Below, piece by piece: positions 3,627 through 62,231 of a stretch of 64,000 nt of DNA. The DNA comes from Alphaproteobacteria bacterium. Its GTDB lineage: Bacteria; Pseudomonadota; Alphaproteobacteria; UBA6615. The stretch's first letter is position 1. The number at the start of each line of letters is the position of its first letter. The stretch is taken from NCBI GenBank assembly GCA_965205535.1, contig CBDBHH010000005.1, positions 88,151 to 152,150 of the forward strand, written 5' to 3'. The notes below the pieces were generated by a model, which saw nothing but the letters and a program-made list of their open reading frames with translations, did no database searches and was not told the DNA's origin. The position numbers were made by a program, and so were the translations under genes.

Positions 3627-4736
3627 ATGGAAACCCGCGCCGCCGTCGCCCTCGAGGCCGGCAAACCCCTGAGCATCGAAACGGTCAACCTGGACGGCCC
3701 GCGTGACGGCGAAGTGCTCGTCGAGATCAAGGCCACCGGGATCTGCCACACGGACGAATTTACCCTGTCGGGCGCAGACCCCGAAGGGCTGTTTCCCGCG
3801 ATCCTGGGCCATGAGGGCGCGGGTGTGGTTGTGGATGTGGACAAGGGCGTAACGTCGGTGAAGAAGGGGGACCACGTGATCCCGCTCTACACGCCCGAAT
3901 GCCGCGAGTGCGACTATTGCACGTCTGGCCGGACCAACCTTTGTCAGGCCATTCGCGAGACCCAGGGCCAGGGCCTGATGCCCGACGGCACGTCGCGCTT
4001 CTCCATCGGCAAGGACCGACTGTTCCACTATATGGGCACCTCGACCTTCTCCAACTACACCGTGCTGCCGGAAATCGCGGTTGCCAAGGTGCGTGAAGAC
4101 GCACCGTTCGAGAAGATCTGCTACATCGGCTGCGGTGTAACCACGGGCATCGGCGCGGTGATCAACACCGCCAAGGTCGAGCCGGGCGACAATGTGGTCG
4201 TGTTCGGTCTCGGCGGGATCGGCCTCAACGTCATCCAGGGTGCGCGCCTCGTCGGTGCCAACAAGATCGTCGGTGTCGATCTGAACCCCGCACGCAAACC
4301 GATCGCCGAGGCCTTCGGCATGACCCATTTCGTCAACCCGTCCGAAGTCGAGGGCGATCTGGTTCCCTATCTGGTCGACCTGACCGATGGCGGCGCGGAT
4401 CACTCGTTCGAGTGCATCGGCAACGTCGAGGTGATGCGCCAGGCGCTGGAATGCTGTCACAAGGGCTGGGGCAAATCGACGATCATCGGTGTCGCCCCCG
4501 CGGGTGCCGAAATCGCCACCCGGCCGTTCCAGCTTGTCACCGGCCGCACCTGGCAGGGCACGGCGTTCGGGGGCGCCAAGGGCCGTACGGATGTGCCCAA
4601 GATCGTCGACTGGTACATGGACGGTAAGATCAACATCGACGATCTGATCACCCATGTCATGCCGCTGGACCAGATCAACGACGCGTTTGACCTGATGCAC
4701 AAGGGTGAGTCGATCCGCAGCGTCGTCACGTTCTAG
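3627..4736 (+). CDS. frmA: S-(hydroxymethyl)glutathione dehydrogenase / class III alcohol dehydrogenase
   Basis: GICHTD, GHEGAG, structural Zn cysteines C-x2-C-x2-C-x7-[17 protein letters not shown]. Start set at ATG 3627 after a GGGAGA RBS. Confidence 0.95.
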
Positions 4737-4897
4737 CGTGACGTCCCAAATCGTATTCTGAACCTGACTTCACGGGTGAGTTTCCGGCAGGCGGCTTGCC
4801 TCACGCCGGTGTCCCAACTATCTAACTATGAACAACGAAGCAGGCCCGCGCACCGGCGCGTGCCGCCGCAACGATCAACACAGAGGACGCTCATCTC

Positions 4898-5869
4898 ATG
4901 TCCGAGACCCATCACTCCAAGGTTCTGATCCTTGGCTCCGGCGCTGCCGGCTGCACCGCAGCCATCTACGCCGCGCGCGCCAACCTCAAGCCGATCATGG
5001 TTCACGGCATGCAGCCGGGCGGCCAGCTGACCATCACGACGGAAGTCGAGAACTACCCGGGCTTTGCCGATGTGATCCAGGGCCCCTGGCTTATGGAACA
5101 GATGGTCGAACAGGCCGAAAAGGTGGGCACGAGGATCATGGACGACCTGATCGTCGACGTGGACTTCAGCACCCGTCCTTTCACCTGCACCGGCGATTCC
5201 GGCGATGTTTACACTGGCGACACGGTCGTCGTGGCGACGGGCGCATCCGCCAAGTGGCTCGGCCTCGAAAGCGAACAGAAATTCTCCGGCTTCGGTGTCT
5301 CGGCCTGCGCGACCTGCGACGGGTTTTTCTACCGTGACAAGCCGGTCGCCGTCATCGGCGGCGGCAACACCGCCGTCGAAGAAGCGCTGTTTCTGACAAA
5401 TTTTGCGTCCAAGGTTACCTTGATCCATCGCCGTGACGAGCTTCGCGCAGAGAAGATCATGCAGGATCGCCTGCTGCGTCACGACAAGATCGACGTCGCC
5501 TGGGATACGGTCCTCGAAGAGGTTGTGGGCACCGAAGACCCGCCGGGCGTGACCGGGGCAAAGATCAAGAACGTCAAAAGCGGCGACAACCAGGATCTGG
5601 AAGTGGACGGTGTTTTCATCGCCATCGGCCATGACCCGAATACCAAGGTCTTCCAGGGCAAGCTGGACATGGATGATGAGGGTTATCTGATCACCGCACC
5701 CGACAGCACTGCCACCAACATTCCCGGCGTCTTCGCCGCGGGTGACGTGAAAGACAAGATTTACCGTCAGGCTGTGACCGCCGCCGGTATGGGCTGCATG
5801 GCCGCACTCGAGGCCGAGAAGTTCATCGCCGCACACGAAGATGAAGTCGCACAGGACGCAGCCGAGTAA
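4898..5869 (+). CDS. trxB: Thioredoxin-disulfide reductase
   Basis: GSGAAG, GGQL, SACATCDGFF, GGGNTAVEEA, HRR, AAGDV, YRQA motifs. Confidence 0.97.
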   Translation: MSETHHSKVLILGSGAAGCTAAIYAARANLKPIMVHGMQPGGQLTITTEVENYPGFADVIQGPWLMEQMVEQAEKVGTRIMDDLIVDVDFSTRPFTCTGDSGDVYTGDTVVVATGASAKWLGLESEQKFSGFGVSACATCDGFFYRDKPVAVIGGGNTAVEEALFLTNFASKVTLIHRRDELRAEKIMQDRLLRHDKIDVAWDTVLEEVVGTEDPPGVTGAKIKNVKSGDNQDLEVDGVFIAIGHDPNTKVFQGKLDMDDEGYLITAPDSTATNIPGVFAAGDVKDKIYRQAVTAAGMGCMAALEAEKFIAAHEDEVAQDAAE

Positions 5870-5920
5870 ACCAGCGCGCACGCATCACGCAACGCGCAAG
5901 TCCCCGGGGGGAACGGCCCT

Positions 5921-6820
5921 ATGGCCATGGATTGGGACAAACTGCGGATATTTCATGCCGTCGCAGATGCCGGCAGCTTTACCCATGCGGGTGAAGCCCT
6001 GCATCTGAGCCAGTCTGCGGTCAGCCGACAGATAAGCTCGCTTGAGGACAGCCTCGGCTCGCGGTTGTTCCACCGCCATGCCCGCGGCCTGATCCTGACC
6101 GAACAGGGCGAGTTGCTGTATCGCACCGTGCATGACGTCTTCGCCAAGCTCACCATGGTCGAAGCACGCCTCACGGATTCCCAGGAACGACCGCAGGGGC
6201 CGCTGAAGATCGCCACGACGGTGGGCCTGGGGTCGCTTTGGCTGACGCCGCGCATCAACGAGTTTATCGATCTGTATCCGGACATCGAGGTGAACCTGAT
6301 CACCACCGATGAAGAGCTCGATGTCTCCATGCGCGAAGCCGATTGTGCCATCCGGCTGACCCCGCCGACCCAGGGTGACCTGATCCAGCGCCGGCTCACC
6401 CGGGTCCACACCCATGTCTTCGCATCGCCTGAATATCTGCAAAGCCGCGGGATGCCGGAAAAGGTCAGGGATCTGGCGAACCACGACCTGGTGGTTTATG
6501 GCGAGAACGTCGCCATGCCCGCACCAAACATCAATTGGCTGCTAAATGCGGTCCGCGACGCCACCAACGAGGAACCCCGCAAGGTTCTGACCCTGAACAA
6601 CCTGTATGGCATGTTCCGGGCGGTCGAAGCCGGGATCGGTGTGGCCGGATTACCGGACTTTCTGGCTCGTGAAGCCAAGAATCTGGTGCGTGTCCTGCCC
6701 GAGCTCGAAGGCCCGGGAAACGATGCGTATTTCGTATATCCGGAGGAAATGCGCAGTTCCCAGAGAATCGCGGTTTTCCGGGATTTTCTGCTGAGCAAGG
6801 TTGCTCAGACCCGCTTCTGA
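5921..6820 (+). CDS. LysR-family regulator, VtlR/LsrB type
   Basis: N-terminus MDWDKLRIFHAVADAGSFTHAG...LSQSAVSRQI resembles VtlR/LsrB, and the position directly downstream of trxB matches the rhizobial trxB-lsrB synteny. Confidence 0.9.
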   Translation: MAMDWDKLRIFHAVADAGSFTHAGEALHLSQSAVSRQISSLEDSLGSRLFHRHARGLILTEQGELLYRTVHDVFAKLTMVEARLTDSQERPQGPLKIATTVGLGSLWLTPRINEFIDLYPDIEVNLITTDEELDVSMREADCAIRLTPPTQGDLIQRRLTRVHTHVFASPEYLQSRGMPEKVRDLANHDLVVYGENVAMPAPNINWLLNAVRDATNEEPRKVLTLNNLYGMFRAVEAGIGVAGLPDFLAREAKNLVRVLPELEGPGNDAYFVYPEEMRSSQRIAVFRDFLLSKVAQTRF

Positions 6821-17614: not shown

Positions 17615-19069
17615 ATGTACGAAGCCGCGTTCAAGAATATTGACGATACGTTACGGAAAGACGCTGGCTGTAGCAGTGAACTTGACTACATCGAACAAAC
17701 CAGCTGGATTTTGTTCCTAAAGTACCTTGATGACTTCGAAGCTGATAAAGCCAACTCAGCACTGCTGAACGGAGAGACGTACACGCCCATCCTGAATGAT
17801 GAATTTAGCTGGACGACATGGGCGTCACCAAAATCGGCAGATGGCAAGCAGGATTACAACGCAGCACTCACAGGCGATGATTTACGGGAATTCGTTAATT
17901 TCAAGCTGTTTCCCTATCTCAAGCAATTCAAGGTATCAGCTGACAGCGCCAATACGCTGGAATACAAAATCGGTGAAATTTTCAGCGAGATAAGCAACAA
18001 GCTGCAAAGTGGCTATGCTCTGCGTGACGTAATCAACAAAATTGATGAGCTGAGCTTCCTCAGCAATGACGACAAGCACGAACTCAGCAGCTTGTACGAA
18101 GATAAAATTAAGAATATGGGCAATGCTGGCAGGAACGGTGGCGAATATTATACGCCTCGCCCACTCATCAAAAGCATCGTCAAAGTTGTTAATCCTGTCA
18201 TCGGCGAAACTGTTTATGACGGCGCTGTGGGTAGTGCAGGGTTTTTGTGTGAAGCATATGCCCACATACGTGGCAGCAAGGAACTCAGTGCCGGTGAGTA
18301 TGAGCAACTGCAGCAACACACGCTCTATGGCAAAGAGAAAAAGTCATTAGCCTACGTGATTGGCATAATGAACATGATACTCCATGGCGTTGAAGCGCCT
18401 AATATCGTGCACACAAATACCCTTGGCGAAAATATTGCTGACATACAGCAAAAGGACCGAGTGGATGTCGTACTCGCTAATCCTCCGTTCGGTGGCAAAG
18501 AACAGGCAGAGGTCCAGCAGAACTTTCCTGTAGCAACCAGTGAGACAGCGTATCTGTTCTTGCAGCATTTTATAAAGATGCTGAAGGTAAACGGACGCTG
18601 TGGCGTTGTGATTAAGAATACGTTCCTCAGCAACACAGATAATGCCAGCGTTGCACTGCGTAAGCAGCTGCTTGAGGAATGTAATCTGTTTGCTGTGCTG
18701 GATTTGCCCGGCGGCGCATTTATTGGCACAGGCGTTAAGACTGTGGTGCTGTTTTTTGAAAAAGGAAAATCCACTGAAAACGTTTGGTACTACCAGCTGA
18801 ATGTCGGCAGAAACATGGGGAAAACAAACCCGTTGAACGAGCGCGATTTGGCTGAGTTTGTTGAGATGGCTAAGACACAGGAGCTGAGTGACAACAGCTG
18901 GTTGGTAGACGTAGCAACTGTCAACAAAGACACTTGGGATTTAACTGTTAACAATCCGAATACAGTTGAAGAAGTTGATAATCGCACACCTCAAGAAATC
19001 ATCGCAGAAATTGAACAGCTGGATGTGCAAGCAGCACAAGCATTACAGGCAATCAAGGAGTTGCTGTGA
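17615..19069 (+). CDS. hsdM: Type I R-M methyltransferase subunit
   Basis: GEYYTPR, YDGAVGSAGFL, LANPPF; directly upstream of hsdS and hsdR. Confidence 0.95.
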   Translation: MYEAAFKNIDDTLRKDAGCSSELDYIEQTSWILFLKYLDDFEADKANSALLNGETYTPILNDEFSWTTWASPKSADGKQDYNAALTGDDLREFVNFKLFPYLKQFKVSADSANTLEYKIGEIFSEISNKLQSGYALRDVINKIDELSFLSNDDKHELSSLYEDKIKNMGNAGRNGGEYYTPRPLIKSIVKVVNPVIGETVYDGAVGSAGFLCEAYAHIRGSKELSAGEYEQLQQHTLYGKEKKSLAYVIGIMNMILHGVEAPNIVHTNTLGENIADIQQKDRVDVVLANPPFGGKEQAEVQQNFPVATSETAYLFLQHFIKMLKVNGRCGVVIKNTFLSNTDNASVALRKQLLEECNLFAVLDLPGGAFIGTGVKTVVLFFEKGKSTENVWYYQLNVGRNMGKTNPLNERDLAEFVEMAKTQELSDNSWLVDVATVNKDTWDLTVNNPNTVEEVDNRTPQEIIAEIEQLDVQAAQALQAIKELL

Positions 19070-20255
19070 TGTGGAAGACAGTGAAGCTTGGGGATGTTTG
19101 TACAATAAAAACTGGGAACAGTATCCCAGCCAAGAAAAAAGATGAGTTTTTCACTGGTGTTAAAGGAATGCCATATGTAGCAACCAAAGATGTCGGATTT
19201 GATGGCGATATCAATTACGAAAATGGTATTCGAATACCTGATGCATATCAAAGTAAATTCAAAATATCTCCAGCCGGAGCAACGCTTATTTGTGCAGAGG
19301 GTGGAAGCGCAGGTAGAAAAATCGCCTTCTCTTTTGAAGACTGTTGCTACGTTAACAAACTGTTTTCACTACAGACTGACATAAATGTAATCCCAAAATT
19401 CATTTACTATTATGCTTTAAGCGCTGGCTTTCAGTCTCAGTTTAAGGAAGCATTGCATGGGCTGATTGGTGGTGTTTCGTTATCAAAAATAAAAGATTTT
19501 CAAATATCAATCCCCCCACTCGCAGAACAACAACGCATCGTAGCCAAACTGGATGCTGCGTTTGCTGAGATTAATAAAAGCCAAGCTTCGAATTTAAATA
19601 AAAAAATGAATTAGCCGCGATATCATTAACAACAACTCAGCTAGTGTTTGATAAATTTAGTTCCCAAATTCAATATCAGGAACTGCAGGAACTTTGCTCG
19701 AAGATTACAGACGGGGTGCACAAAAAGCCTGACTACGTTGATGGTGGTGTGCCCTTCCTAAAAATTAACAACTTAACAGCAGGGGAAGGCATCTCATTCA
19801 AAAGCATAAGCTACATAACGCAGGAAGCACATGAGCAATTTATTAAAAGAACACATCCAGAGCGCGATGATATTCTTATCACTAAGGATGGAACAATTGG
19901 TGTTGTTCGAAAAATAGATACAGACGTAGAGTTTTCAATATTTGTTTCCTTAGCACTAATTAAACCTAAGAAAAAAAAGCATTCTGATTATCTCACTTAT
20001 GTACTTCGTTCAACGTACTGCCAGAGCCAGTTAAACCCAAGTGGAACGGCTCTTAAGCATATTTACCTTAAAGATTTGCGAAAACTAAAAATCCCGATTT
20101 CTTCGGATGAAGTGAATTCACAGATTGTTAATGCGTTAAATGATTTTGAAGAAAAAATACGAATTTTATCTACAACCCTAGATCATAAACAAAATGCTTT
20201 GGAAAGGCTGAAAACCGGAATACTCGCACAAGAACTGCAAAGCGAGGCAGCATGA
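19069..20255 (+). pseudogene. hsdS: Type I R-M specificity subunit, frameshifted at an A7 run (19600-19606)
   Basis: WKTVKLGDVC...PPLAEQQRIVAKLD (TRD1 plus coiled coil) continues in another frame as a second TRD (ITDGVHKKP...ILAQEL). Adding one A joins the two parts without a stop. Confidence 0.88.
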
Positions 20256-22588
20256 ACGAAGCTGACACACGTGCTGAATACATCGACAAACAGCTGGAAG
20301 CCGCTGGTTGGAGCTCTGGTGGCGATGTGCGTGTGCAGCGTGAATACAATATCAATGCCGGTGAGATAAAAGCTGGCGGCATACGCACAGGCAAGCTGAT
20401 TGCTGACTATGTGCTGAGTTATAAAAACCGCAAACTGGCGGTGGTTGAGGCAAAGAGTAACGAGTTAGAAGTTGGCGAAGGCGTTGCACAGGCAAAGCTG
20501 TATGCACAAAAGCTGCATCTTGAAACCAGCTACGCGGCTAACGGCAATGAGATTTATCAAATCTGCCACAAGACAGGCGCAGAGGAATTAGTAACCGCTT
20601 TTCCAACGCCTGAAGAACTCTGGAACAAAACCTTCGCTGAGCCCAATGAATGGCTTGAGAAATTTAATGCTGTTCCATTCGAAGATTTAAACGGGACCAA
20701 ACAAGCACGGTACTATCAGGAACTGGCTGTTAACAACGTAATGGCAGCAATCGCCAATGACGAAAAACGTGCATTGCTGACACTGGCAACAGGAACAGGC
20801 AAGACGTTCATCGCGTTTCAGATTGCATGGAAGCTATTTAAAAGCCGATGGAACAAACAGCGTGACGGCAAACGACAGCCACGCATTTTGTTTCTCGCCG
20901 ACAGAAATATTCTAGCTAATCAAGCCTTCTTGGACTTTGGCGCATTCAGCGATGACGCACTGGTGCGAATAAATCCCAAAGAGATTACGCAGACAGGTGA
21001 AGTGCCAAAAAATGGCAGTGTGTTTTTCACAATTTTCCAAACCTTTATGAGCGGGGCTAATGGAAAGCCTTACTTCGGCGAATACGAGAAAGACTTTTTC
21101 GATTTTGTAATTATTGACGAGTGTCACCGAGGTGGCGCGAATGACGAAAGCAGTTGGAGAGACATACTTAATCACTTCGACAGTGCAGTTCATCTTGGAC
21201 TTACGGCTACGCCAAAGCGTGATGACAATGTGGATACGTATGATTATTTCGGTGAACCTGTTTACGTCTACAGCCTGAAAGAAGGCATTCAAGACGGGTT
21301 CCTAACCCCATTCAAAGTAAAACGTATCCAGACCACAATCGATGAGTACGTGTACACGCCCGATGACGAAGTCCTAGACGGCGAAGTTGAAGAGGGTAAC
21401 GTCTACACGGAAAGCGACTTCAACAAAAAGATTGTGATTGAGGAACGAGAACGCAAGCGAGTGCAGGACTTGCTTGCGGCAATAAATCAAAACGAAAAGA
21501 CAATCGTGTTCTGTGCCAACCAAGCACATGCCCTAATGGTACGAAACTTAATCAACCAAGAATCTGACAGTACCTCTGTAGATTACTGTGTGCGTGTCAC
21601 TGCCAATGATGGGGCGCTTGGCGATACCTATCTCAACCAGTTCAAAGATAACGAAAAGCTGCTGCCCACTATCCTGACTACCAGCCAAAAACTCACCACA
21701 GGCGTTGATGCACGTAATGTACGCAACATTGTTCTGCTGCGTCCTGTGAACAGCATGATTGAGTTCAAACAGATTATTGGACGCGGCACTCGGCTGTTTG
21801 AAGGCAAGCACTATTTCACAATCGTAGACTTTGTTAACGCATATCATCTGTTCCTTGATGATGAGTGGGATGGCGAACCCATGGAGCCAGACGACAATGG
21901 AGGCGATACCGGAAACGGGGGTGAAGGTGAAGGCGAAGGCGAAGGTGGGGACACTGGTGGAGACGGTGACGGTGGCGAAGGTGAAGGCGAACAGCCCACA
22001 ACGCTAAAAATACGTCTGTCTGATGGCAAGGTGCGCGAACTACAAAGCATGACTTCCACGTATTTTTACGTGGACGGAAAACCAATCAGTGCAGAAGAAT
22101 TCTTACAAAAGCTGTTCGACACGCTGCAGCTGCCAAGCTTGTTCAGTAGCGAAGAGAAGCTGCGCGAGATTTGGGCAAACCCACTGACGCGTAGAGACTT
22201 AATAAGCAACTTGGAAAAAGAAGGTTGCGATAAAGACGATTTGCTCAAAATGCAGGAACTCATAAACGCCGAAGACAGCGATTTATTTGATGTGCTCCAG
22301 TATATTGCATACGCCAAAGAAACCATCAGCCGTGCGGCACGTGTAGAAACAAACAAAGACAATATCTACACGCTGCTGAATGCCGAGCAACGCGAGTTCG
22401 TTAGCTATGTGCTGCGTAATTATGTTGAGGTTGGCGTTGATGAATTGGATGTCTCAAAACTAAGTACGGTGCTTACAGCAAAGTATGGAAGCATACACGC
22501 GGCACAGCAGCAGCTAGGGAACAATCAAGATATACAGCGTACCTTTATTGAATTTCAGTCACAGCTCTACAAAGAGGCGGTTGGCTGA
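20252..22588 (+). CDS. hsdR: Type I R-M restriction subunit (EcoAI/EcoEI-like)
   Basis: MNEADTR, ADYVL...VVEAK nuclease motif, LATGTGKT, DECHRG, LTATP, QIIGRGTR. Confidence 0.95.
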   Translation: MNEADTRAEYIDKQLEAAGWSSGGDVRVQREYNINAGEIKAGGIRTGKLIADYVLSYKNRKLAVVEAKSNELEVGEGVAQAKLYAQKLHLETSYAANGNEIYQICHKTGAEELVTAFPTPEELWNKTFAEPNEWLEKFNAVPFEDLNGTKQARYYQELAVNNVMAAIANDEKRALLTLATGTGKTFIAFQIAWKLFKSRWNKQRDGKRQPRILFLADRNILANQAFLDFGAFSDDALVRINPKEITQTGEVPKNGSVFFTIFQTFMSGANGKPYFGEYEKDFFDFVIIDECHRGGANDESSWRDILNHFDSAVHLGLTATPKRDDNVDTYDYFGEPVYVYSLKEGIQDGFLTPFKVKRIQTTIDEYVYTPDDEVLDGEVEEGNVYTESDFNKKIVIEERERKRVQDLLAAINQNEKTIVFCANQAHALMVRNLINQESDSTSVDYCVRVTANDGALGDTYLNQFKDNEKLLPTILTTSQKLTTGVDARNVRNIVLLRPVNSMIEFKQIIGRGTRLFEGKHYFTIVDFVNAYHLFLDDEWDGEPMEPDDNGGDTGNGGEGEGEGEGGDTGGDGDGGEGEGEQPTTLKIRLSDGKVRELQSMTSTYFYVDGKPISAEEFLQKLFDTLQLPSLFSSEEKLREIWANPLTRRDLISNLEKEGCDKDDLLKMQELINAEDSDLFDVLQYIAYAKETISRAARVETNKDNIYTLLNAEQREFVSYVLRNYVEVGVDELDVSKLSTVLTAKYGSIHAAQQQLGNNQDIQRTFIEFQSQLYKEAVG

Positions 22589-22867
22589 AACGATGAATGA
22601 GTGCATTCGAAGCATCTCTAAAGCAAGAGAGATGTGGCTATGCCTCACGGAATTCCATACAAATCATCTCATCCTTTATATTGGTTGTGCTCTTTTTAGG
22701 GTTTGGGCGTCTCATTAAGGTCTAGACCTCACTTGAAACTGTTCCACAAATCATTATCGGGTGTTTTTACATCTGTATTGAACCCCACCAGATGCAGCAT
22801 CCCGAAACCCCCGTTTTCTCCCATTTTCAGGCACCAAAATATGAGGGGTAAAAACACCCCTCTCATA

Positions 22868-23062
22868 TCACCAACTGGATAGGGAAACCCTGCGTTTCCT
22901 CTGTTGGGCAATCTGTTCCATCTTCTTATCTCTCACCATACGCAGACCTTCATTCACCATCGCATTGATGGATGTAGTCCCTGCATCCAAACTCTTCACC
23001 TTGGTCATATCCATCCAGAGGTCATAATCAATCCGTGCGGCATATTCGTGTATCTGGTTCAT
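22868..23062 (-). CDS. Small protein with ribbon-helix-helix (CopG/Arc)-like pattern
   Basis: YAARIDYDLW...GTTSINAMVNEGLRMV fits RHH spacing; ATGA overlap with the upstream ORF. Confidence 0.5.
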   Translation of the reverse strand: MNQIHEYAARIDYDLWMDMTKVKSLDAGTTSINAMVNEGLRMVRDKKMEQIAQQRKRRVSLSSW

Positions 23063-23208
23063 CGACAGTTCCTTTCATCATTCTGTATTCTGGCGACTAT
23101 GCGGGTAATCATTTCCAGTATCCGTTCTTCCTTTGGTTTATTGGATAGAGGTTTCTTGTTCATACCCCATAGGGATTTGAAATCAGGTTTCTGTTGGTCA
23201 TTCTTCAT
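23059..23208 (-). CDS. 49-aa hypothetical protein (missing from the ORF track)
   Basis: MKNDQQKPDFKSLWGMNKKP...ERNCR; GGAG RBS; stop overlaps the next ATG. Confidence 0.5.
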   Translation of the reverse strand: MKNDQQKPDFKSLWGMNKKPLSNKPKEERILEMITRIVARIQNDERNCR

Positions 23209-23339
23209 TGGGCAATCTCCTGTTCCCTATCGTCTGGCATCCAGTGATTATTTAGGTGTTTCCCCATAGGTATAAGATGCAGATACAGGGGCATCTGTTG
23301 GGGTAGGCACAAAACCGCACTTAACATCGGGACAGATAG

Positions 23340-23873
23340 TTAGGCAGCAACCCTTGTCGGGTTCATATTGGACGGTGTGGTGAAGAACCAATCTTCACCG
23401 GCATCAATCCTGTTCATCCACTTTGAGCAGTAGATTGTGGTGGCAATTACATTCTCCACCTTCTGGACATCCAGAGGTCGTTTCCCGTCAGGGCAAAGCA
23501 TCCTCATCTTTCCAGAGTATGGATTTTGTGATGGCATCATCATCCAATCCATCTGGATGTCTGCACTCACATTCTCAAATTGTATTTTCCTGTGCAGCAC
23601 CGATGGAGTGTGGAGAAGGATGTGATAGTGAATTTGATGACCAAATCCATCACCCTCACGAAATCCCACCATCCAAAATCTATTATCAGCATCCCACTTC
23701 GGGAAACTGGATTTTAGATATTTCTTGTTCAACTGATATTCCATCGTCCTCATACGTTGGATGATTTCATCCTGTTTGAATGGCAACGATGGTGTGGGTT
23801 CAATGGTAATGAAATGCGACCAATCAATGGTCTTCATCCATTTCTGCATTTCATATTTTTGAGTGGCACCCAT
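23340..23873 (-). CDS. HUH-endonuclease / rolling-circle Rep-like protein, 5' end split off by the IS1595
   Basis: Motif I-like FITIE, motif II HYHILL, motif III-like YCSK. The original start MGSKF lies at 26440-26454, across the IS. Confidence 0.6.
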   Translation of the reverse strand: MGATQKYEMQKWMKTIDWSHFITIEPTPSLPFKQDEIIQRMRTMEYQLNKKYLKSSFPKWDADNRFWMVGFREGDGFGHQIHYHILLHTPSVLHRKIQFENVSADIQMDWMMMPSQNPYSGKMRMLCPDGKRPLDVQKVENVIATTIYCSKWMNRIDAGEDWFFTTPSNMNPTRVAA

Positions 23874-23897
23874 AAATTTTGGGGATTATACGCTTAA

Positions 23898-24071
23898 CTA
23901 GCCATTGGGTTTCGCGAGTTTCCGGGGCTTCCGGCGGGTCGGGTCCGGTTTTTTCACGGCGGAGAACATCGCCCGCGCCACGCCTTTCGGCGCTGCGTCC
24001 AGCTTGATCTCGCGCGTGACGGGGCGGCCACGCTTCGGGGGCTCTGGCTGAGGTTTCGTCTTGCCGGTCAT
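23898..24071 (-). CDS. 57-aa basic protein with AT-hook-like KRGRP motif, at the IS end
   Basis: Manual translation MTGKTKPQPEPPKRGRPVTREIKLDAAPKGVARAMFSAVKKPDPTRRKPRKLAKPNG; its stop lies inside the IR. Confidence 0.55.
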   Translation of the reverse strand: MTGKTKPQPEPPKRGRPVTREIKLDAAPKGVARAMFSAVKKPDPTRRKPRKLAKPNG

Positions 24072-24084
24072 CGCGTGGTCCCGG

Positions 24085-24804
24085 TTAGAACAGGTAGTAT
24101 CGGAGGGACGTTTCGGCCACCTCTTTCAGGATATCGAACATTTCCCCGCGCTTCCATTCGGGCTCGCGGAAGTACATCGAGACCGGGGCGAAACGATTCC
24201 TGTCCGATGAGCCGTCCTTCTTGAAAACGTGTGTCCGGTTGAGCGGGTAGAACTCGTTCATCATCGAGACCTTCGACATGACGAACGAGCTTTCGTCATA
24301 GTCCTCCACGAAGTCGCAGCCCCATCCGAAGCATACGAACGGCGTCAGGGCCTCGTGGTTCATGGCCGCGCGTATCCCGATCAGGTTCTTTCCCAGCCGC
24401 TCGATTGCGTTGCCTTGTGCCTGCCGGGGGCGGCCCTCGGCCAGCCGTTCCTTGTTGGTTCCCTGTTTCTTGATCTCCGAGACCAGGACGAGACGGCGGT
24501 AATCGCCGTCCCCTTCCTTCAGGAGCCAGATCACACCGCCGTCCGGCTTGATGGTGCGGTCGAGAAACGTCTGGTCGAACTCGACCCGTTGCCCCGCGAC
24601 GCCGATCATGGCGATGAGCTGGCGATAGGACAGCCTGGTATCGAACACCAGGCTGTAGCCGTCGAGATTGTCCGCCATGCGATCTTCGAGATAGCCAATA
24701 CAATCCTGCATGGCGTCGTGAATGGCCTTGTCGCTGCGGGCGGACTCCCGGTTCTTGGGGCGGTGCTGCGCCTTGTTCCGGCGAAGGTCTTCCGACCTAG
24801 CCAT
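24085..24804 (-). CDS. EcoRI-family type II restriction endonuclease
   Basis: IKPDGG...VLVSEIKKQG (PD-x-ExK) and GNAIERLGKN, compared with EcoRI GNAIERSHKN; then PFVCFGWGCDF. 239 aa, apparently intact. Confidence 0.85.
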   Translation of the reverse strand: MARSEDLRRNKAQHRPKNRESARSDKAIHDAMQDCIGYLEDRMADNLDGYSLVFDTRLSYRQLIAMIGVAGQRVEFDQTFLDRTIKPDGGVIWLLKEGDGDYRRLVLVSEIKKQGTNKERLAEGRPRQAQGNAIERLGKNLIGIRAAMNHEALTPFVCFGWGCDFVEDYDESSFVMSKVSMMNEFYPLNRTHVFKKDGSSDRNRFAPVSMYFREPEWKRGEMFDILKEVAETSLRYYLF

Positions 24805-25409
24805 CGTAGAAATAATGGCCGCGCAGGCCCTCGACGTTGAAGATGAGGACCTCGCTGTGGAACAGGACGCCTTCGTAGACGTCTTTCGGCAAGGCGACGA
24901 TGGCCGAGATCGGCGGGTAGGAACCGTCCAGGAATCGCCGCCACCGCTTGCTGGCGACCGTCTGGTTGAGCCGCAGCCCGTAGGGCGCGAACAGGACCAG
25001 GGGCACCCCCCCCCCCCCACAATTCCACGGCCTTGTGCAGCCAGACTTCCGGCAGCAGGGGCCGTCGGCCGAAATTGGCCGCAACCATGTCTTTCGTCTT
25101 GGCGTCGATGTTGAAGGGCGGGTTGGCGATGACGAGGCCGGGGCGGTCGATCTCGCCGGGACGGACGCCGATGAAATCCCGGACGATCGTGTCCGGCCAG
25201 CCCTGGTCCTCGATGTCGATCCCGACTGTCGGGAACCCCGCCTCGCGGAACGGGCCGAGCAGGGAACCGGTGCCGACACACGGATCGAGGACGACACCGT
25301 CGATCCGCTCGCTCACGAGATCGAACAGGAACCGGCTGACGGACGGCGGCGTGTAGACCGTGGCGTCCTTGCCGTTCCGGTAGAAATCGTTTCGATCGAC
25401 ACGGTACAT
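24797..25409 (-). pseudogene. Small gamma-type adenine DNA methyltransferase, frameshifted in a G13 tract
   Basis: VYTPP, LDPCVGTGSL, IANPPFN. The reading continues in another frame after C13 (25006-25018) as VPLVLFAPYG...FHSEVLIFN. G12 gives a 203-aa protein whose stop overlaps the nuclease start. Confidence 0.85.
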
Positions 25410-25413
25410 CGCG

Positions 25414-26352
25414 CTACGCCACCAGGTCCCGGTAGCGCAGCCGCTTGCCGACCATGCCGCGCGTCAGCGCCGCCATCTGGGCGACGGTATCGAGATCGCG
25501 GATGTTGTGCCGTCCGGCAAACTCGCGGACGTAGCGGTCCAGGTGCTTCGGGCTGACATGGTGGAACGTCCCGTGATAGCCGCGTTTCAGCATCGACCAG
25601 AAGGACTCCATGCCGTTGGTGCTCGCCATCCCGTCGACATACTCGCCCGCGCTGTGACGCACGGTCTCGTGGTCGAAGGGCAGCCCGCGATAGGCCGCGT
25701 GCTCGTCGGTGTAGACCTTCGCGCCCGGTGCCGCGCGAGCGGCAACGAAGCCCTGCAACGTCGCGGCGTCGGTGCCCCCGACGACGGTGGCGGAGATACG
25801 CTTCGATCCCCGGTCCCGCGCACCGGCGACGGCCACCTTGCCGACGGCCCCACGTCCGGCCCGGAGTTTCTTGCGCCCGTGTTTGTTCTTTTCCTTGCCG
25901 CCGATATAGGTCTCGTCGACCTCGACGGGGCCGGGGAAGGGCAGGCCGACACCGGCCTCGAAGCCCTCGCGGATGCGCTGCATCAGGTGCCACGCGGTCG
26001 CCTGCCGGATGCCGAGCTCGCGGTAGAGCTTCATCGACGACGTACCCTTGAGGCCGGTGGTCATCATGTAGATCGCGACCGCCCATTTCTGAAAGCCAAT
26101 CTTCGACGACTGCATGACGGTGCCCTTTTTGACGCTGAAATGGGCGCGGCAATCGCGGCAACGATACGGCATCGGCCTGCGGTTCTTCACGGATACGGTC
26201 TCGGTCGACCCGCAGTCCGGGCAGAACCGGCCATCGGGCCAGCGCTGTTCCTCGAACCACGTCTCCGCCGATGCATCGTCGGGAAACATCTGAAACAATT
26301 CCAGGATGGTCAGCCCCTCGCGATGCGATCTGCCGGGTGCTTTCTGTGCCAT
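25414..26352 (-). CDS. IS1595-family transposase
   Basis: N-terminal Zn ribbon CPDC...CRDC, VEVDETY, YTDEHAAY, TNGMESFW, HLDRYVREFAGRHN. Confidence 0.95.
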   Translation of the reverse strand: MAQKAPGRSHREGLTILELFQMFPDDASAETWFEEQRWPDGRFCPDCGSTETVSVKNRRPMPYRCRDCRAHFSVKKGTVMQSSKIGFQKWAVAIYMMTTGLKGTSSMKLYRELGIRQATAWHLMQRIREGFEAGVGLPFPGPVEVDETYIGGKEKNKHGRKKLRAGRGAVGKVAVAGARDRGSKRISATVVGGTDAATLQGFVAARAAPGAKVYTDEHAAYRGLPFDHETVRHSAGEYVDGMASTNGMESFWSMLKRGYHGTFHHVSPKHLDRYVREFAGRHNIRDLDTVAQMAALTRGMVGKRLRYRDLVA

Positions 26353-26561
26353 GACGATTCGATCCCTGTCAATGTGTCTGGCTAATTATATGGTATTTAA
26401 TCAAGGATTGTCAATGGCTAGTTAAGCGTATAATCCCCTAAATTTTGAACCCATAACTAACAAACTAACAACACAGACGAACTATGTTCTTTCTCATATT
26501 CCAGACGATTTATTTATAATATCTATGATTTTCATATGAAGAGCGGATAAAGCACCCACCC

Positions 26562-26811
26562 TTACGCACATTGTGCAAACTCGGGCAGAACTTTACGCAC
26601 GGTCTGGTTAGATACAGAAAATTCCTTGGCAAGTTTCTTAATTCCCCACCCTTCATTCCGTCTTTCAAGGATTTGAGCAGCAACCTCATCCGTCATATTG
26701 GTGCGTCTTCCCCAAGCACCACCGTTCTTGCGTCTGGAATTGGATATTCCTGATTTCACACGATGCGACAGGTTGAAAAGTTCCATCTTGGAGATGGCAG
26801 ACAGCATCGTG
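26562..26811 (-). pseudogene. C-terminal part of a serine resolvase/invertase
   Basis: MLSAISKMELFNLSHRVKSG...GRR...IKKLAKEFSVSNQTVRK (helix E, GRx linker, HTH). The N-terminus is replaced by IS sequence at 26812. Confidence 0.75.
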
Positions 26812-26929
26812 TGAGCTACTCCCCGGAAATGGGACACTGACGTAAGCTACGATTTGTTGTCTGCTGGTCTTCGACGAAAAGGAGATCAGCGATGTCGAAA
26901 CGCAAGCAGCACTCCCCCGAGTTCAAGGC
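26812..26929 (+). mobile_element. Left-end fragment of an IS3-family element
   Basis: TG-starting end TGAGCTACTCCCCGGAAATGGGACAC, AAGGAG RBS and an OrfA start MSKRKQHSPEFKA cut off by the next IS. Confidence 0.7.
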
Positions 26930-27002
26930 TGTCCGTCGTCATATAAAATGGGACATCAGAGTGGTTTGAGCATTGGAGTCTCTGGCTCGTTTGTGTGATT
27001 GA

Positions 27003-59970: not shown

Positions 59971-60227
59971 GGGCGCACCTGATTGCCCTGGCGCGAAGCT
60001 CCGACGAGGTGCTGGGTACATTCCTGGCGATGGGCAGCGAGAGTGGGTTGGGCCGGTTGGACGCTCAAGACAGGAGTTCCTGCGGAATCGGCTTCCTGAT
60101 TCAGGGTGAGTATATCGATTAACATATTGATATCAAATCACTACCCCCCCCCCCGCAAATACCTCTTGATTAACCTATCGAATTTGGTATTTTCCCTGAA
60201 AAGGTACACCATGGAAAAGGAACGTTC

Positions 60228-62231
60228 ATGACCATCTTGAAACCTTACCTGCTGCCATCTGTTTTTTTGGGAGCGGCCTTGATGCTTGCCCTGCCGTGGG
60301 GCGCAGCAGCACAAACCATCGATAATGCCAGAACGATCACGTTAGACTCAGTCGTCGCTGACGCGACAATCACCGTTACCGAGACGGGAGAAATCACACC
60401 AAACGGAATCCTCCAACACGGCATTGACTCAATTGGTGAGAGTCCAACAATCACCAACAATGGCACAATCACAACGGACGGTGGTAGCGCCAGCGGCATT
60501 CACTCGACTGGCGATGGCTCAACACAAGATAAAACAACAATCACCAACAATGGCACGATCACAACAAACGATAATACCTCGCGCGGCATTCTCGCAAATG
60601 GCGGTTGGGCGGAAATCACCAACAATGGCATGATCGAAACGTTCGGAGAGCGTTCGGCAGGTATCTTTTCGTCCGGCGCCAACGCGACAATCACCTTGGG
60701 CGAAAACGGCACGATCACAACAAGCGGCCCAATCTCAGCCGGCGGCAGCGGCGCGCCCGGCATTTATTCAAGCCACGAGAACGCAATGATCACCATCAAT
60801 GGCGCGATCACGACAAGCGGTGAGGCGGCCCACGGTGTTCAATCGACTAACAATCCTTCCGACAGTGGAAATCCCCGTAACGCGAATATCACCGTTGGTG
60901 TGACTGGAACAATCTCAACGAGCGGTAATAACGCGCACGGCATTCAGGCAACCGGCGATAATGCGACAATCACCATCGATGGCAAGGTCACTGTCAGCGG
61001 CGAGGGTTCCTATGTGGTGCGCGGTGGCGATGATACCAACCAAACGCTGACCCTGTCAGAGGGCGCGGTAACCCAGGGGGAATTCAATCTGGGAGAGGGC
61101 GAAGGCGATAATGATGTCGCCAACGTTTGGGTGGATACCACGGCGGGCGCCTCATCGACCGTCACTATCGGCGGCGCGGAGACCATTAACCTGATGAGTG
61201 CGGATCCAGACGCCCGGATGTTTCAATTACCCCGATTAGTGAGCAGCTCAGGCGATAGGGTGGCTATGATCGACCCGACGGGGGCGGCCGCAACGCGCAT
61301 GGCACTGGGCGCAACCACGGGCCAGATTCATCGACAGGTGTCAAACCGTCTGGCCTTCGCGCCGCAAGCCGGGGGACGCGCAGGGGACGCGCGTGACAGA
61401 ACCGCATGGGGCGCTTTTTTGGGTGGCCACTCCGGGCGCGATGACGACGGGCTGGCGCTGGCTTTTGATCACAGCCTTTATGGTGTGGTCGGAGGCTACG
61501 ATGCTTACATAGACAGCGGCCAGCGGGTCGGCTTTTTTGCCGGGTTTGGCAGGGAAGATATCAAAACCTCCGACAGTGCGTCCATCACCGACACCGCAGA
61601 CCGCGCGTTTGCCGGGGTTTACGGGCGGCATGTGATCGGTAATCTGAGCCTGGATGCATCGGTGGTGCTCGGATATGCCAGCCACAAGGCCACCCGCGCC
61701 GTGTTTGACAACACGACAGGAGCCGAAACCGCTAACGGAGAATACAACAGCGCCACCGTCAGCCCGGCGCTGCGCCTGGGCTGGTCCCACGCCTTCGCCA
61801 ACGGGCTTGAACTGCGGCCCGGCGCGCAAATCGCCTATACCCACGGGTTTTATGGCAGTTACACCGAAAGCGGCGCCTCAAACTCGAATATAAGCTTCGA
61901 GAATCGGAACGTGAGCATTGCCGATGCGCGCCTGCAACTGGCGTTGGCGCAACCGTTTGACGCCGACCGGGGAGAGATCGAATTCCGCATCGGGGGCATT
62001 GCAACGCATTACGGCAAGGACAGTGTCAACGCCCAACTGGTGGGCGGGGGCGCGACCACATCCTACGCGGTGCCGGGCGACAGGACGTTCTCCGGCGGCT
62101 TTGTCGGGGCTACTCTGCACTACGCCATCAAGGATCGTGTCAATCTGGACGGTACGATCGAATATGCCCGGACATCGGGCGACAGCTCTGGCGCACTCTC
62201 GGGGCAACTGGGGCTGGTGTTCAAATTTTAG
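60228..62231 (+). CDS. Autotransporter D with beta-helical passenger (667 aa)
   Basis: Signal peptide, repeated ITNNGTITT.G..A.GI, C-terminal barrel ending GLVFKF; AAGGA RBS. Confidence 0.9.
   Translation: MTILKPYLLPSVFLGAALMLALPWGAAAQTIDNARTITLDSVVADATITVTETGEITPNGILQHGIDSIGESPTITNNGTITTDGGSASGIHSTGDGSTQDKTTITNNGTITTNDNTSRGILANGGWAEITNNGMIETFGERSAGIFSSGANATITLGENGTITTSGPISAGGSGAPGIYSSHENAMITINGAITTSGEAAHGVQSTNNPSDSGNPRNANITVGVTGTISTSGNNAHGIQATGDNATITIDGKVTVSGEGSYVVRGGDDTNQTLTLSEGAVTQGEFNLGEGEGDNDVANVWVDTTAGASSTVTIGGAETINLMSADPDARMFQLPRLVSSSGDRVAMIDPTGAAATRMALGATTGQIHRQVSNRLAFAPQAGGRAGDARDRTAWGAFLGGHSGRDDDGLALAFDHSLYGVVGGYDAYIDSGQRVGFFAGFGREDIKTSDSASITDTADRAFAGVYGRHVIGNLSLDASVVLGYASHKATRAVFDNTTGAETANGEYNSATVSPALRLGWSHAFANGLELRPGAQIAYTHGFYGSYTESGASNSNISFENRNVSIADARLQLALAQPFDADRGEIEFRIGGIATHYGKDSVNAQLVGGGATTSYAVPGDRTFSGGFVGATLHYAIKDRVNLDGTIEYARTSGDSSGALSGQLGLVFKF

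Follow-up and report, generated by a model that had tools for sequence, protein, structure and literature searches.

The stretch of DNA analyzed here, 64,000 nucleotides from an alphaproteobacterium of the UBA6615 lineage (GenBank assembly GCA_965205535.1, contig CBDBHH010000005.1, positions 88,151 to 152,150 of the forward strand) and hereafter called the window, contains a 2558-bp insertion sequence (IS) of the IS1595 family at positions 23881–26438. Between its ends the element carries the two genes of a type II restriction-modification (R-M) system, and it transposes as one unit, cargo included. The methyltransferase gene of the pair is thrown out of frame by a homopolymeric run of G. On balance, it is probable that this is a transporter IS (tIS) with a type II R-M operon in which a slipped-strand switch lies in the methyltransferase gene and the nuclease is coupled to it, and that the system stands in its off state here.

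The ends of the element are well defined. A 27-bp inverted repeat, GGGGATTATACGCTTAACTAGCCATTG, is perfect at both ends: all 27 bases of the cargo-distal repeat (23881–23907, the right end in gene orientation) are complementary to those of the transposase-end repeat (26412–26438). Immediately outside the repeats, and like them without a strand, lie the two copies of an 8-bp target-site duplication, TAAATTTT, at 23873–23880 and 26439–26446; both were read directly, and the right-hand copy also in a mapped metagenome contig. A duplication of this length is typical of the IS1595 family. The four genes are all on the minus strand, in the order transposase (25414–26352), methyltransferase (24797–25409), EcoRI-family nuclease (24085–24804) and a basic open reading frame (ORF) of 57 amino acids (aa; 23898–24071). 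An earlier note on this DNA, made from the sequence alone, had described the perfect repeats, the intact duplication and four co-oriented genes with a 4-bp gap and an 8-bp overlap, and all of these were found where it had placed them.

Mobility of the whole unit is evident from two identical copies with two different duplications, an empty site and sister elements, which bears out the earlier description of a single IS1595 element with a methyltransferase–nuclease passenger. The genome (3.70 Mb in 5 contigs) was searched for further copies, as the earlier note had proposed, and contains a second one at C5:1428589-1431146 that is 100% identical over all 2558 bp and has a different 8-bp duplication, AAAAAAAT. 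The empty site is found in a 1826-base contig of the seawater metagenome run X1, which joins position 23872 straight to 26439, with 473 and 373 matching bases on either side, and skips 2566 bases, that is, the element and one copy of the duplication. The mapping on window positions 23400–26900 used contigs, rather than raw reads, from four public runs, X1 being the one seawater run mapped. Runs X18 and X19 are one sample, and X18, X19 and X20 share the same organism label; in all three, exact-match contigs reach about twice the depth of the single-copy flanks, and loose contig ends match the flanks of the second genomic copy. Run X20 has almost no cover over 24921–25154 and was not used as evidence. 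At 24294–25618, the same three runs also contain contigs that are ~90% identical (32/365 and 42/422 differences) and lie at about single-copy depth; these would stem from a third, diverged copy of the element or from one that resides in a different organism of the sample, and they are absent from the genome assembly.

The first cargo gene encodes a gamma-class N6-adenine DNA methyltransferase of ~204 aa if read in frame. It starts at 25409, 4 bp past the transposase stop, and its N-terminal part matches Pfam N6_Mtase (1.2e-7), with motif I (VLDPCVGTGSLL) and NPPF present. The gene is split by a homopolymer of 13 G on the coding (minus) strand at 25006–25018, one base above the in-frame length and identical in the second genomic copy; the earlier note had counted 12. 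At the tract, the reading frame passes from the N-terminal 130 residues to a C-terminal part of 69 aa in the +1 frame, the stop codon of which (24799–24797) forms the 8-bp overlap with the nuclease ATG. Twelve G would encode W-G-G-G-V-P-L, which is colinear with W-G-K-D-V-P-L in relatives. Thus, as at contingency loci, a repeat of at least nine bases lies within the coding sequence and sets its frame. Of the earlier claim that an entire R-M system is carried, the part that stands is the methyltransferase–nuclease pair with an intact nuclease ORF; the methyltransferase gene itself has lost its frame in the two copies alike. That the element might stabilize itself by post-segregational killing, as the note also proposed, is a conjecture. 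The family to which the methyltransferase belongs is large, comprising 577 clusters at E<=1e-10, and almost unnamed. An AlphaFold model of one homologue (8-sequence alignment) has a pLDDT of 82.9; its matches include the M.TaqI catalytic domain (5.6e-9), M.BseCI and the M subunits of type I systems, and it has no separate recognition domain.

The nuclease is an intact ORF of 239 aa and belongs to the EcoRI family of type II restriction endonucleases (PF02963, 4.9e-13, with 49.2 bits where the cut-off is 22; PADLOC REase_II, 2e-14). In an alignment with the EcoRI chains 1qps/1ckq (1.4e-7), the nuclease shares the motifs IKPDGG, E-x-K (SEIKKQG) and GNAIER. Identity to plasmid EcoRI genes is ~27% over 64% of the length, and the nearest plasmid nuclease is 37% identical. 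In EcoRI, GNAIER contacts the inner AATT; since this motif is conserved, a recognition site with a central AATT is a reasonable guess. The stop codon of the methyltransferase and the start codon of the nuclease overlap in the 8 bp ATGGCTAG, and no purine-rich stretch precedes the nuclease ATG. Because the overlap is conserved and such a stretch is missing, translation of the nuclease is probably coupled to that of the methyltransferase.

How might these parts work together? A sigma-70-like promoter facing the transposase is predicted on the minus strand at 26385–26414, from a consensus match only (TTGACA, 18 nt, TATAAT; 12/12 matches), and its TTGACA hexamer overlaps the inner end of the transposase-end repeat. 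From this promoter, the transposase, methyltransferase, nuclease and small ORF would be transcribed on one message. Having no ribosome-binding site of its own, the nuclease would be translated only by ribosomes that finish the methyltransferase. The 13-G run would be a hypermutable switch that changes its length by slipped-strand events. At 12 G, both enzymes would be made; at 13 G, the length in both copies, the methyltransferase frame would be lost and the coupled nuclease would go untranslated, leaving the system silent, harmless and reversible.

The element has many relatives in its own genome, where 28 tblastn matches to IS1595-type transposases were found. Follow-up of these yielded more elements bounded by inverted repeats, with 8-bp duplications and with cargo downstream of the transposase on the same strand. 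Sister elements with other cargo in the same slot, for which the earlier note had recommended a search, are thus present in this genome, as they are in metagenomes. A 2741-bp IS1595 element, found in four copies (C5:2733330-2736070; 3906-6646; 3372997-3375737; and 1-2712 plus the contig end), encodes a C5 cytosine methyltransferase (5.1e-50) and, in the overlapping gene that follows, an HNH nuclease. Repeat lengths among copies are 13 and 13 for the element in the window and 16, 16, 16 and 15 for this sister, whose methyltransferase gene is out of frame in the three C16 copies and forms a complete 309-aa ORF in the C15 copy at the contig start. Among the 2741-bp copies, the flanking 8-bp sequences are swapped, AATGAGTT being on the left of one copy and on the right of another, and AAAATAAT likewise, which indicates rearrangement by recombination between copies.

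Five more elements differ in size and cargo. T4 (2864 bp, C5 near 1021–1022 kb, duplication TTTCTTTT) has a D12-like methyltransferase and a NotI-family nuclease; T9 (~2715 bp, C5 1781.7–1784.4 kb, AAAATTAT) an N6_N4 methyltransferase and an MvaI/BcnI-family nuclease; and T10 (2313 bp, C5 436.3–438.6 kb, TGATCAAA) a D12 methyltransferase and a PD-(D/E)XK/DpnII-like nuclease. T13 (~3913 bp, C5 1784.5–1788.5 kb) encodes an 806-aa N6_Mtase/Eco57I-like (type IIG-like) protein together with a ParE-like ORF. The cargo of T6 (~2929 bp, C5 1382–1385 kb, AATGATTA), a weakly methyltransferase-like ORF and an unknown ORF, is uncertain. The duplications are clear in four of these five elements. Further IS1595 elements of the genome have P63C-domain or unknown cargo. 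It is notable that six or seven different R-M cargoes reside in IS1595 elements of a single genome. The tracts recur as well: the methyltransferase genes of T4 and T10 contain runs of G10 and G11, each one base too long and out of frame, and 8 of the 13 genomic runs of at least nine G or C fall in these IS1595-borne methyltransferase genes.

Some other runs in this genome deserve mention. A C11 run in the window (60144–60154) lies 74 bp upstream of a 667-aa autotransporter-like ORF (60228–62231), the position expected for a promoter-located phase-variation tract, which suggests that the host uses such tracts more widely. A G9 run at C5:782006-782014 splits into two frames a gene with a PLD-type motif (HPKL...GSHN, identified by eye) that is next to a 550-aa ORF and may be another switchable defense gene. 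Missing mismatch repair as a cause of the tracts was ruled out, mutS and mutL both being present. There is also a smaller IS1595 relative of 1418 bp (C5:2936752-2938169 and four further copies), with a transposase 60% identical to that of the element; its cargo slot is occupied by one ORF of 119–133 aa on the opposite strand that matches no family.

The same cargo is found in other genomes. A scan of species-representative genomes for the nuclease gave 14 loci, at which the four proteins were then compared by tblastn. The methyltransferase is directly upstream of the nuclease in 13 of them, and a full transposase precedes the pair in four loci from three genomes. In one (L009), an alphaproteobacterial metagenome-assembled genome (MAG), the element is 2569 bp long and has related repeats and a transposase 91% identical to that in the window. 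A Bryobacterales MAG has two 100% identical 2588-bp copies (L012 and L013) with the duplications AAACGGAT and CTGATTAT; these have their own 27-bp repeats and a transposase that is only 54% identical, and the cargo is the same. The fourth locus, in Latescibacterota (L018), has the same gene order and a transposase of 64% identity; its left end was found, and its right end has been lost beside other transposases. L011 and L020 retain transposase remnants only, and the nuclease genes of L020 and L022 have deletions. From these comparisons, the pair appears to have been associated with IS1595 elements for a long time, the transposases having diverged more than the cargo.

At seven loci (L010, L014–L017, L019 and L022) the pair is a ~1.3-kb insert between housekeeping genes, for example between those for serine hydroxymethyltransferase and tRNA-guanine transglycosylase, without transposase or repeats, and no convincing inverted repeats or end remnants were seen around the transposase-less loci. 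Judging from these settings, the R-M pair therefore also travels by means other than IS1595. The pair is absent from the 11 other genomes of the same genus, and among 60 relatives it was found in one distant genome only (72% identity).

Runs of at least nine bases are present in 4 of the 14 methyltransferase genes (that of the window, L009, L010 and L015), and in all four the gene is out of frame there and the nuclease is full length. In L010 and L015 it is a G9 run, located as in the window's gene, and the frame is off by one base; in L009 it is a C10 run elsewhere in the gene, with an offset of +2 or −1. Nine of the 11 relatives examined for tract frame are free of runs, and eight of these genes are in frame, with products of 205–224 aa; the ninth, L020, is in frame at the tract site and has an altered end.

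How widespread is this kind of element? A transposase scan of metagenomes gave 80 loci at 39–76% identity. Of these, 29, representing 22 distinct elements, are bounded by inverted repeats that mostly begin with GGG(G/A)ATTATA; they span 1.6–4.5 kb, and all 29 exceed a bare transposase gene in size. Their cargo includes Mom (L041), an N6_Mtase with a type I S-like subunit (L043), a type II methyltransferase with a nuclease (L045), BglII-family nucleases (L048, and L053 with an MT-A70 methyltransferase) and a SocA-like antitoxin (L072); the remainder had no match.

Why, then, is the methyltransferase gene out of frame? Several observations weigh against a freely switching tract. Both genomic copies have the same off length, with no length variation for the element itself, and the genome is without any in-frame methyltransferase of this family. 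Among the best 120 of the 577 methyltransferase matches, all of them full length, three glycines occupy the tract site in only one in-frame homologue. Neither GAATTC nor CAATTG is avoided in the genome (ratios 0.96 and 0.95), and there is no avoidance signal for other AATT palindromes either. Mapping used contigs, in which minor length variants are invisible. In addition, six of the seven tract-bearing genes are exactly one base too long, a bias that free switching does not predict. Finally, none of the 29 metagenome relatives bounded by inverted repeats has a long homopolymer, so that the tracts, as far as these sequences indicate, are a feature of some hosts and are not general to the family or clade.

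Two frame-disrupted copies in a genome without an intact one, and candidate sites that are not avoided, would also be expected of a decaying cargo with a methyltransferase pseudogene and an R-M pair that no longer functions, transposase and ends being sufficient for movement. Decayed forms do exist elsewhere, namely the transposase remnants of L011 and L020 and the nuclease deletions of L020 and L022. However, a dead methyltransferase combined with an expressed, intact nuclease should kill, and the nuclease ORF is intact here and in the three tract-bearing relatives. The ratio of nonsynonymous to synonymous substitution rates (dN/dS) of the methyltransferase relative to L009 is 0.077 before the tract and 0.165 after it, in the proper frame (0.11 after it relative to L010), and that of the nuclease is 0.09. 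By this measure the post-tract part is under purifying selection in its proper frame, and because the ratios are low, the methyltransferase does not look like an old pseudogene. Moreover, relatives carry the mixed sequence TGGGGCAAGGATG where the element has a T followed by 13 G; one single slip would therefore not suffice to make the tract, which needs several changes. The recurrence of tracts in three unrelated methyltransferase genes of the genome is likewise difficult to reconcile with decay, which we regard as unlikely.

Could the extra base be an error of assembly? The true tract would then be 12 G, the methyltransferase intact and the R-M system of the IS active. Errors are common in long homopolymers, polishing could have brought the two copies to a single consensus, and the sole in-frame copy of the 2741-bp element lies at a contig start, where polishing may differ. 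Against this, the mapped contigs of X18 and X19 have zero insertion or deletion rows, although the assembly itself may have been built from these runs. Two other assemblies show the same +1 state, and elsewhere in the genome a G9 run lies in frame within a 229-aa ORF. Such an error is therefore improbable.

The excess of genes that are one base too long could reflect either a technical cause or programmed recoding. In the latter case, the +1-long tract would be corrected by RNA-polymerase slippage or by +1 ribosomal frameshifting, giving a low, set level of expression, so that the system is on but throttled. The six genes with exactly one extra base are that of the window (G13), L010 and L015 (G9 in both), the 2741-bp element (C16 in 3 of 4 copies), T4 (G10) and T10 (G11); they span different assemblies, one of them short-read judging by its record name. 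The nuclease is intact in all, and the post-tract region is under purifying selection, as described above. A run of G reads GGG in every frame, so a tRNA could re-pair after a shift. On the other hand, the run of L009 is offset by +2 or −1, and one copy of the 2741-bp element is in frame, as a switch at the DNA level predicts. Nor is there a stimulatory rare or stop codon after the tract in the zero frame, and transcriptional slippage in bacteria is documented mostly for runs of A or T. Recoding is thus unlikely, and the slipped-strand switch with a coupled nuclease is the account that we favor.

The remaining genes belong to the IS itself. The transposase, 312 aa long, has an ISXO2-like DDE domain (PF12762, 2.5e-41) and an N-terminal zinc ribbon (PF12760, 3.1e-9), and it scores above the cut-off of the NCBIfam model transpos_IS1595 (5.3e-56). 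Relatives on plasmids share no more than 47% identity with it and bear only the annotation "IS1595 family transposase"; no R-M genes were seen in the two annotated plasmid neighborhoods that were viewed. The small basic ORF at the other end runs into the terminal repeat and has no Pfam or NCBIfam match. L009, L012, L018, the 2741-bp element and T4 each have a homologous small ORF at the corresponding end, and a profile built from six examples finds members outside the seed in L061 (3e-14), L053 (1.5e-8), L045 and L043. Members of this family are basic, cargo-distal and 47–88 aa long, and they share a motif of the form GRP...(I/L)...(T/A)PE(E/D).A(R/K)A; the family matches no library, and the GRP core resembles an AT-hook. 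Relative to L009, dN/dS is 0.24 for the small ORF and 0.165 for the transposase. Since the small ORF is common to sister elements and was not found 3′ of the nuclease in the five transposase-less loci that were translated, it appears to belong to the conserved backbone of this IS clade and not to the R-M pair.

As for the setting of the element, its own G+C content (62–70%) is close to that of the genome (61.4%), and that of its flanks in the window is ~45%. It is embedded in a low-G+C stretch at about 18000–27000 of the window (~34–52%; genome, 61%). It lies directly upstream of an ORF of 177 aa (23340–23873) that can be assigned to no known family and whose start codon overlaps the duplication. 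The flank of the element has a match of ~99% identity in a seawater metagenome contig.

Is such an element new? The earlier note knew of no characterized example of this architecture, and in this it went too far, since the IS1595 transporter IS is an established class and R-M units within inverted repeats were described in 2010. In the available text of the sources, tIS are IS-like elements with passenger genes, reportedly confined to the IS1595 and IS66 families (TnCentral preprint; PMC3129680), and the passengers named are regulators, methyltransferases and antibiotic resistance genes (PMC11891212). The element in the window shares with them a single IS1595-type transposase, short terminal repeats, an 8-bp duplication and passengers between the ends; the accessible descriptions do not mention a whole methyltransferase–nuclease operon, a homopolymer gate or a conserved small terminal ORF. 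R-M units within inverted repeats (26/26 in N. gonorrhoeae, 60/65 in X. oryzae) were reported, in the sections available, by Furuta, Abe and Kobayashi (2010; PMC2853133). These units had an 8-bp duplication, and the empty site was present in a relative; the Neisseria unit included a gene with a COG3677 transposase motif, and a 2009 IS1595 paper is cited there among reports of IS-flanked R-M or solitary M genes. R-M genes inside inverted repeats, the 8-bp duplication and the empty site are thus common to those units and to the element. In the same sections, however, the units have a transposase-like gene that is probably inactive, or none, and are single copies without a tract, and the cargo in the case with the transposase-like gene is a truncated type IIG gene with an S subunit. 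The element described here, by contrast, is multicopy, encodes an intact transposase and carries a classical two-gene system.

The cargo itself resembles EcoRI in that the nuclease belongs to the EcoRI Pfam family, keeps PD...E-x-K and GNAIER and is partnered by an N6-adenine methyltransferase with NPPF. It differs in the low identity given above, in the order of the genes, methyltransferase first and overlapping the nuclease, and in the methyltransferase, which at ~205 aa would, judging from the homologue model, consist of a catalytic domain without a separate recognition domain. Tracts of this kind also have a precedent. In H. pylori, according to the portion of the report that was available, G or C runs of more than 8 break the frame of methyltransferase and specificity genes, and repair restored activity in 4 of 7 (PMC3936762). 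In both situations a G or C run inside the gene sets it out of frame. The H. pylori cases in that portion concern chromosomal type I, IIB, IIG and III systems of a host-adapted pathogen (PMC3936762), whereas the tract described here lies in the methyltransferase gene of a transposable two-gene type II system in a marine-type alphaproteobacterium in which mutS and mutL are present. No intact multicopy IS1595 element with a classical two-gene type II system was found in a literature search that did not extend to the 2009 IS1595 paper, ISfinder or REBASE; within the same limits, no report was found of one genome harboring several such elements that differ in cargo, or of a homopolymer gate in such cargo. 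The class is known, then, and the element is a variant of it; the multiplicity of the elements and the recurrent tract are worth a test at the bench. With sizes of 2.3–3.9 kb, they are small enough for direct work in E. coli.

What do these elements mean for the biology of R-M systems? How such systems spread, and how a cell tolerates many of them, are open questions that the findings address. Whole R-M operons are carried here by autonomous transposons of the smallest kind, and the same cargo is found with diverged transposases in three phyla. The 205-aa methyltransferase family of 577 clusters, almost unannotated, represents an unusually small kind of DNA methyltransferase. If the gate and the coupling are real, an element that may land anywhere could carry a toxic nuclease safely, and the specificity of defense would be switchable at the level of the population. 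It is possible, and we suggest it only tentatively, that the IS1595 clade with GGG(G/A)ATTATA ends and the small terminal ORF is a shuttle dedicated to compact type II R-M operons, which in some hosts have acquired the +1 tract and the slaved nuclease as a safety design. In that case, the nuclease would never be made without its methyltransferase, and switching or recoding would keep many coexisting, transposing copies silent or at a trace level.

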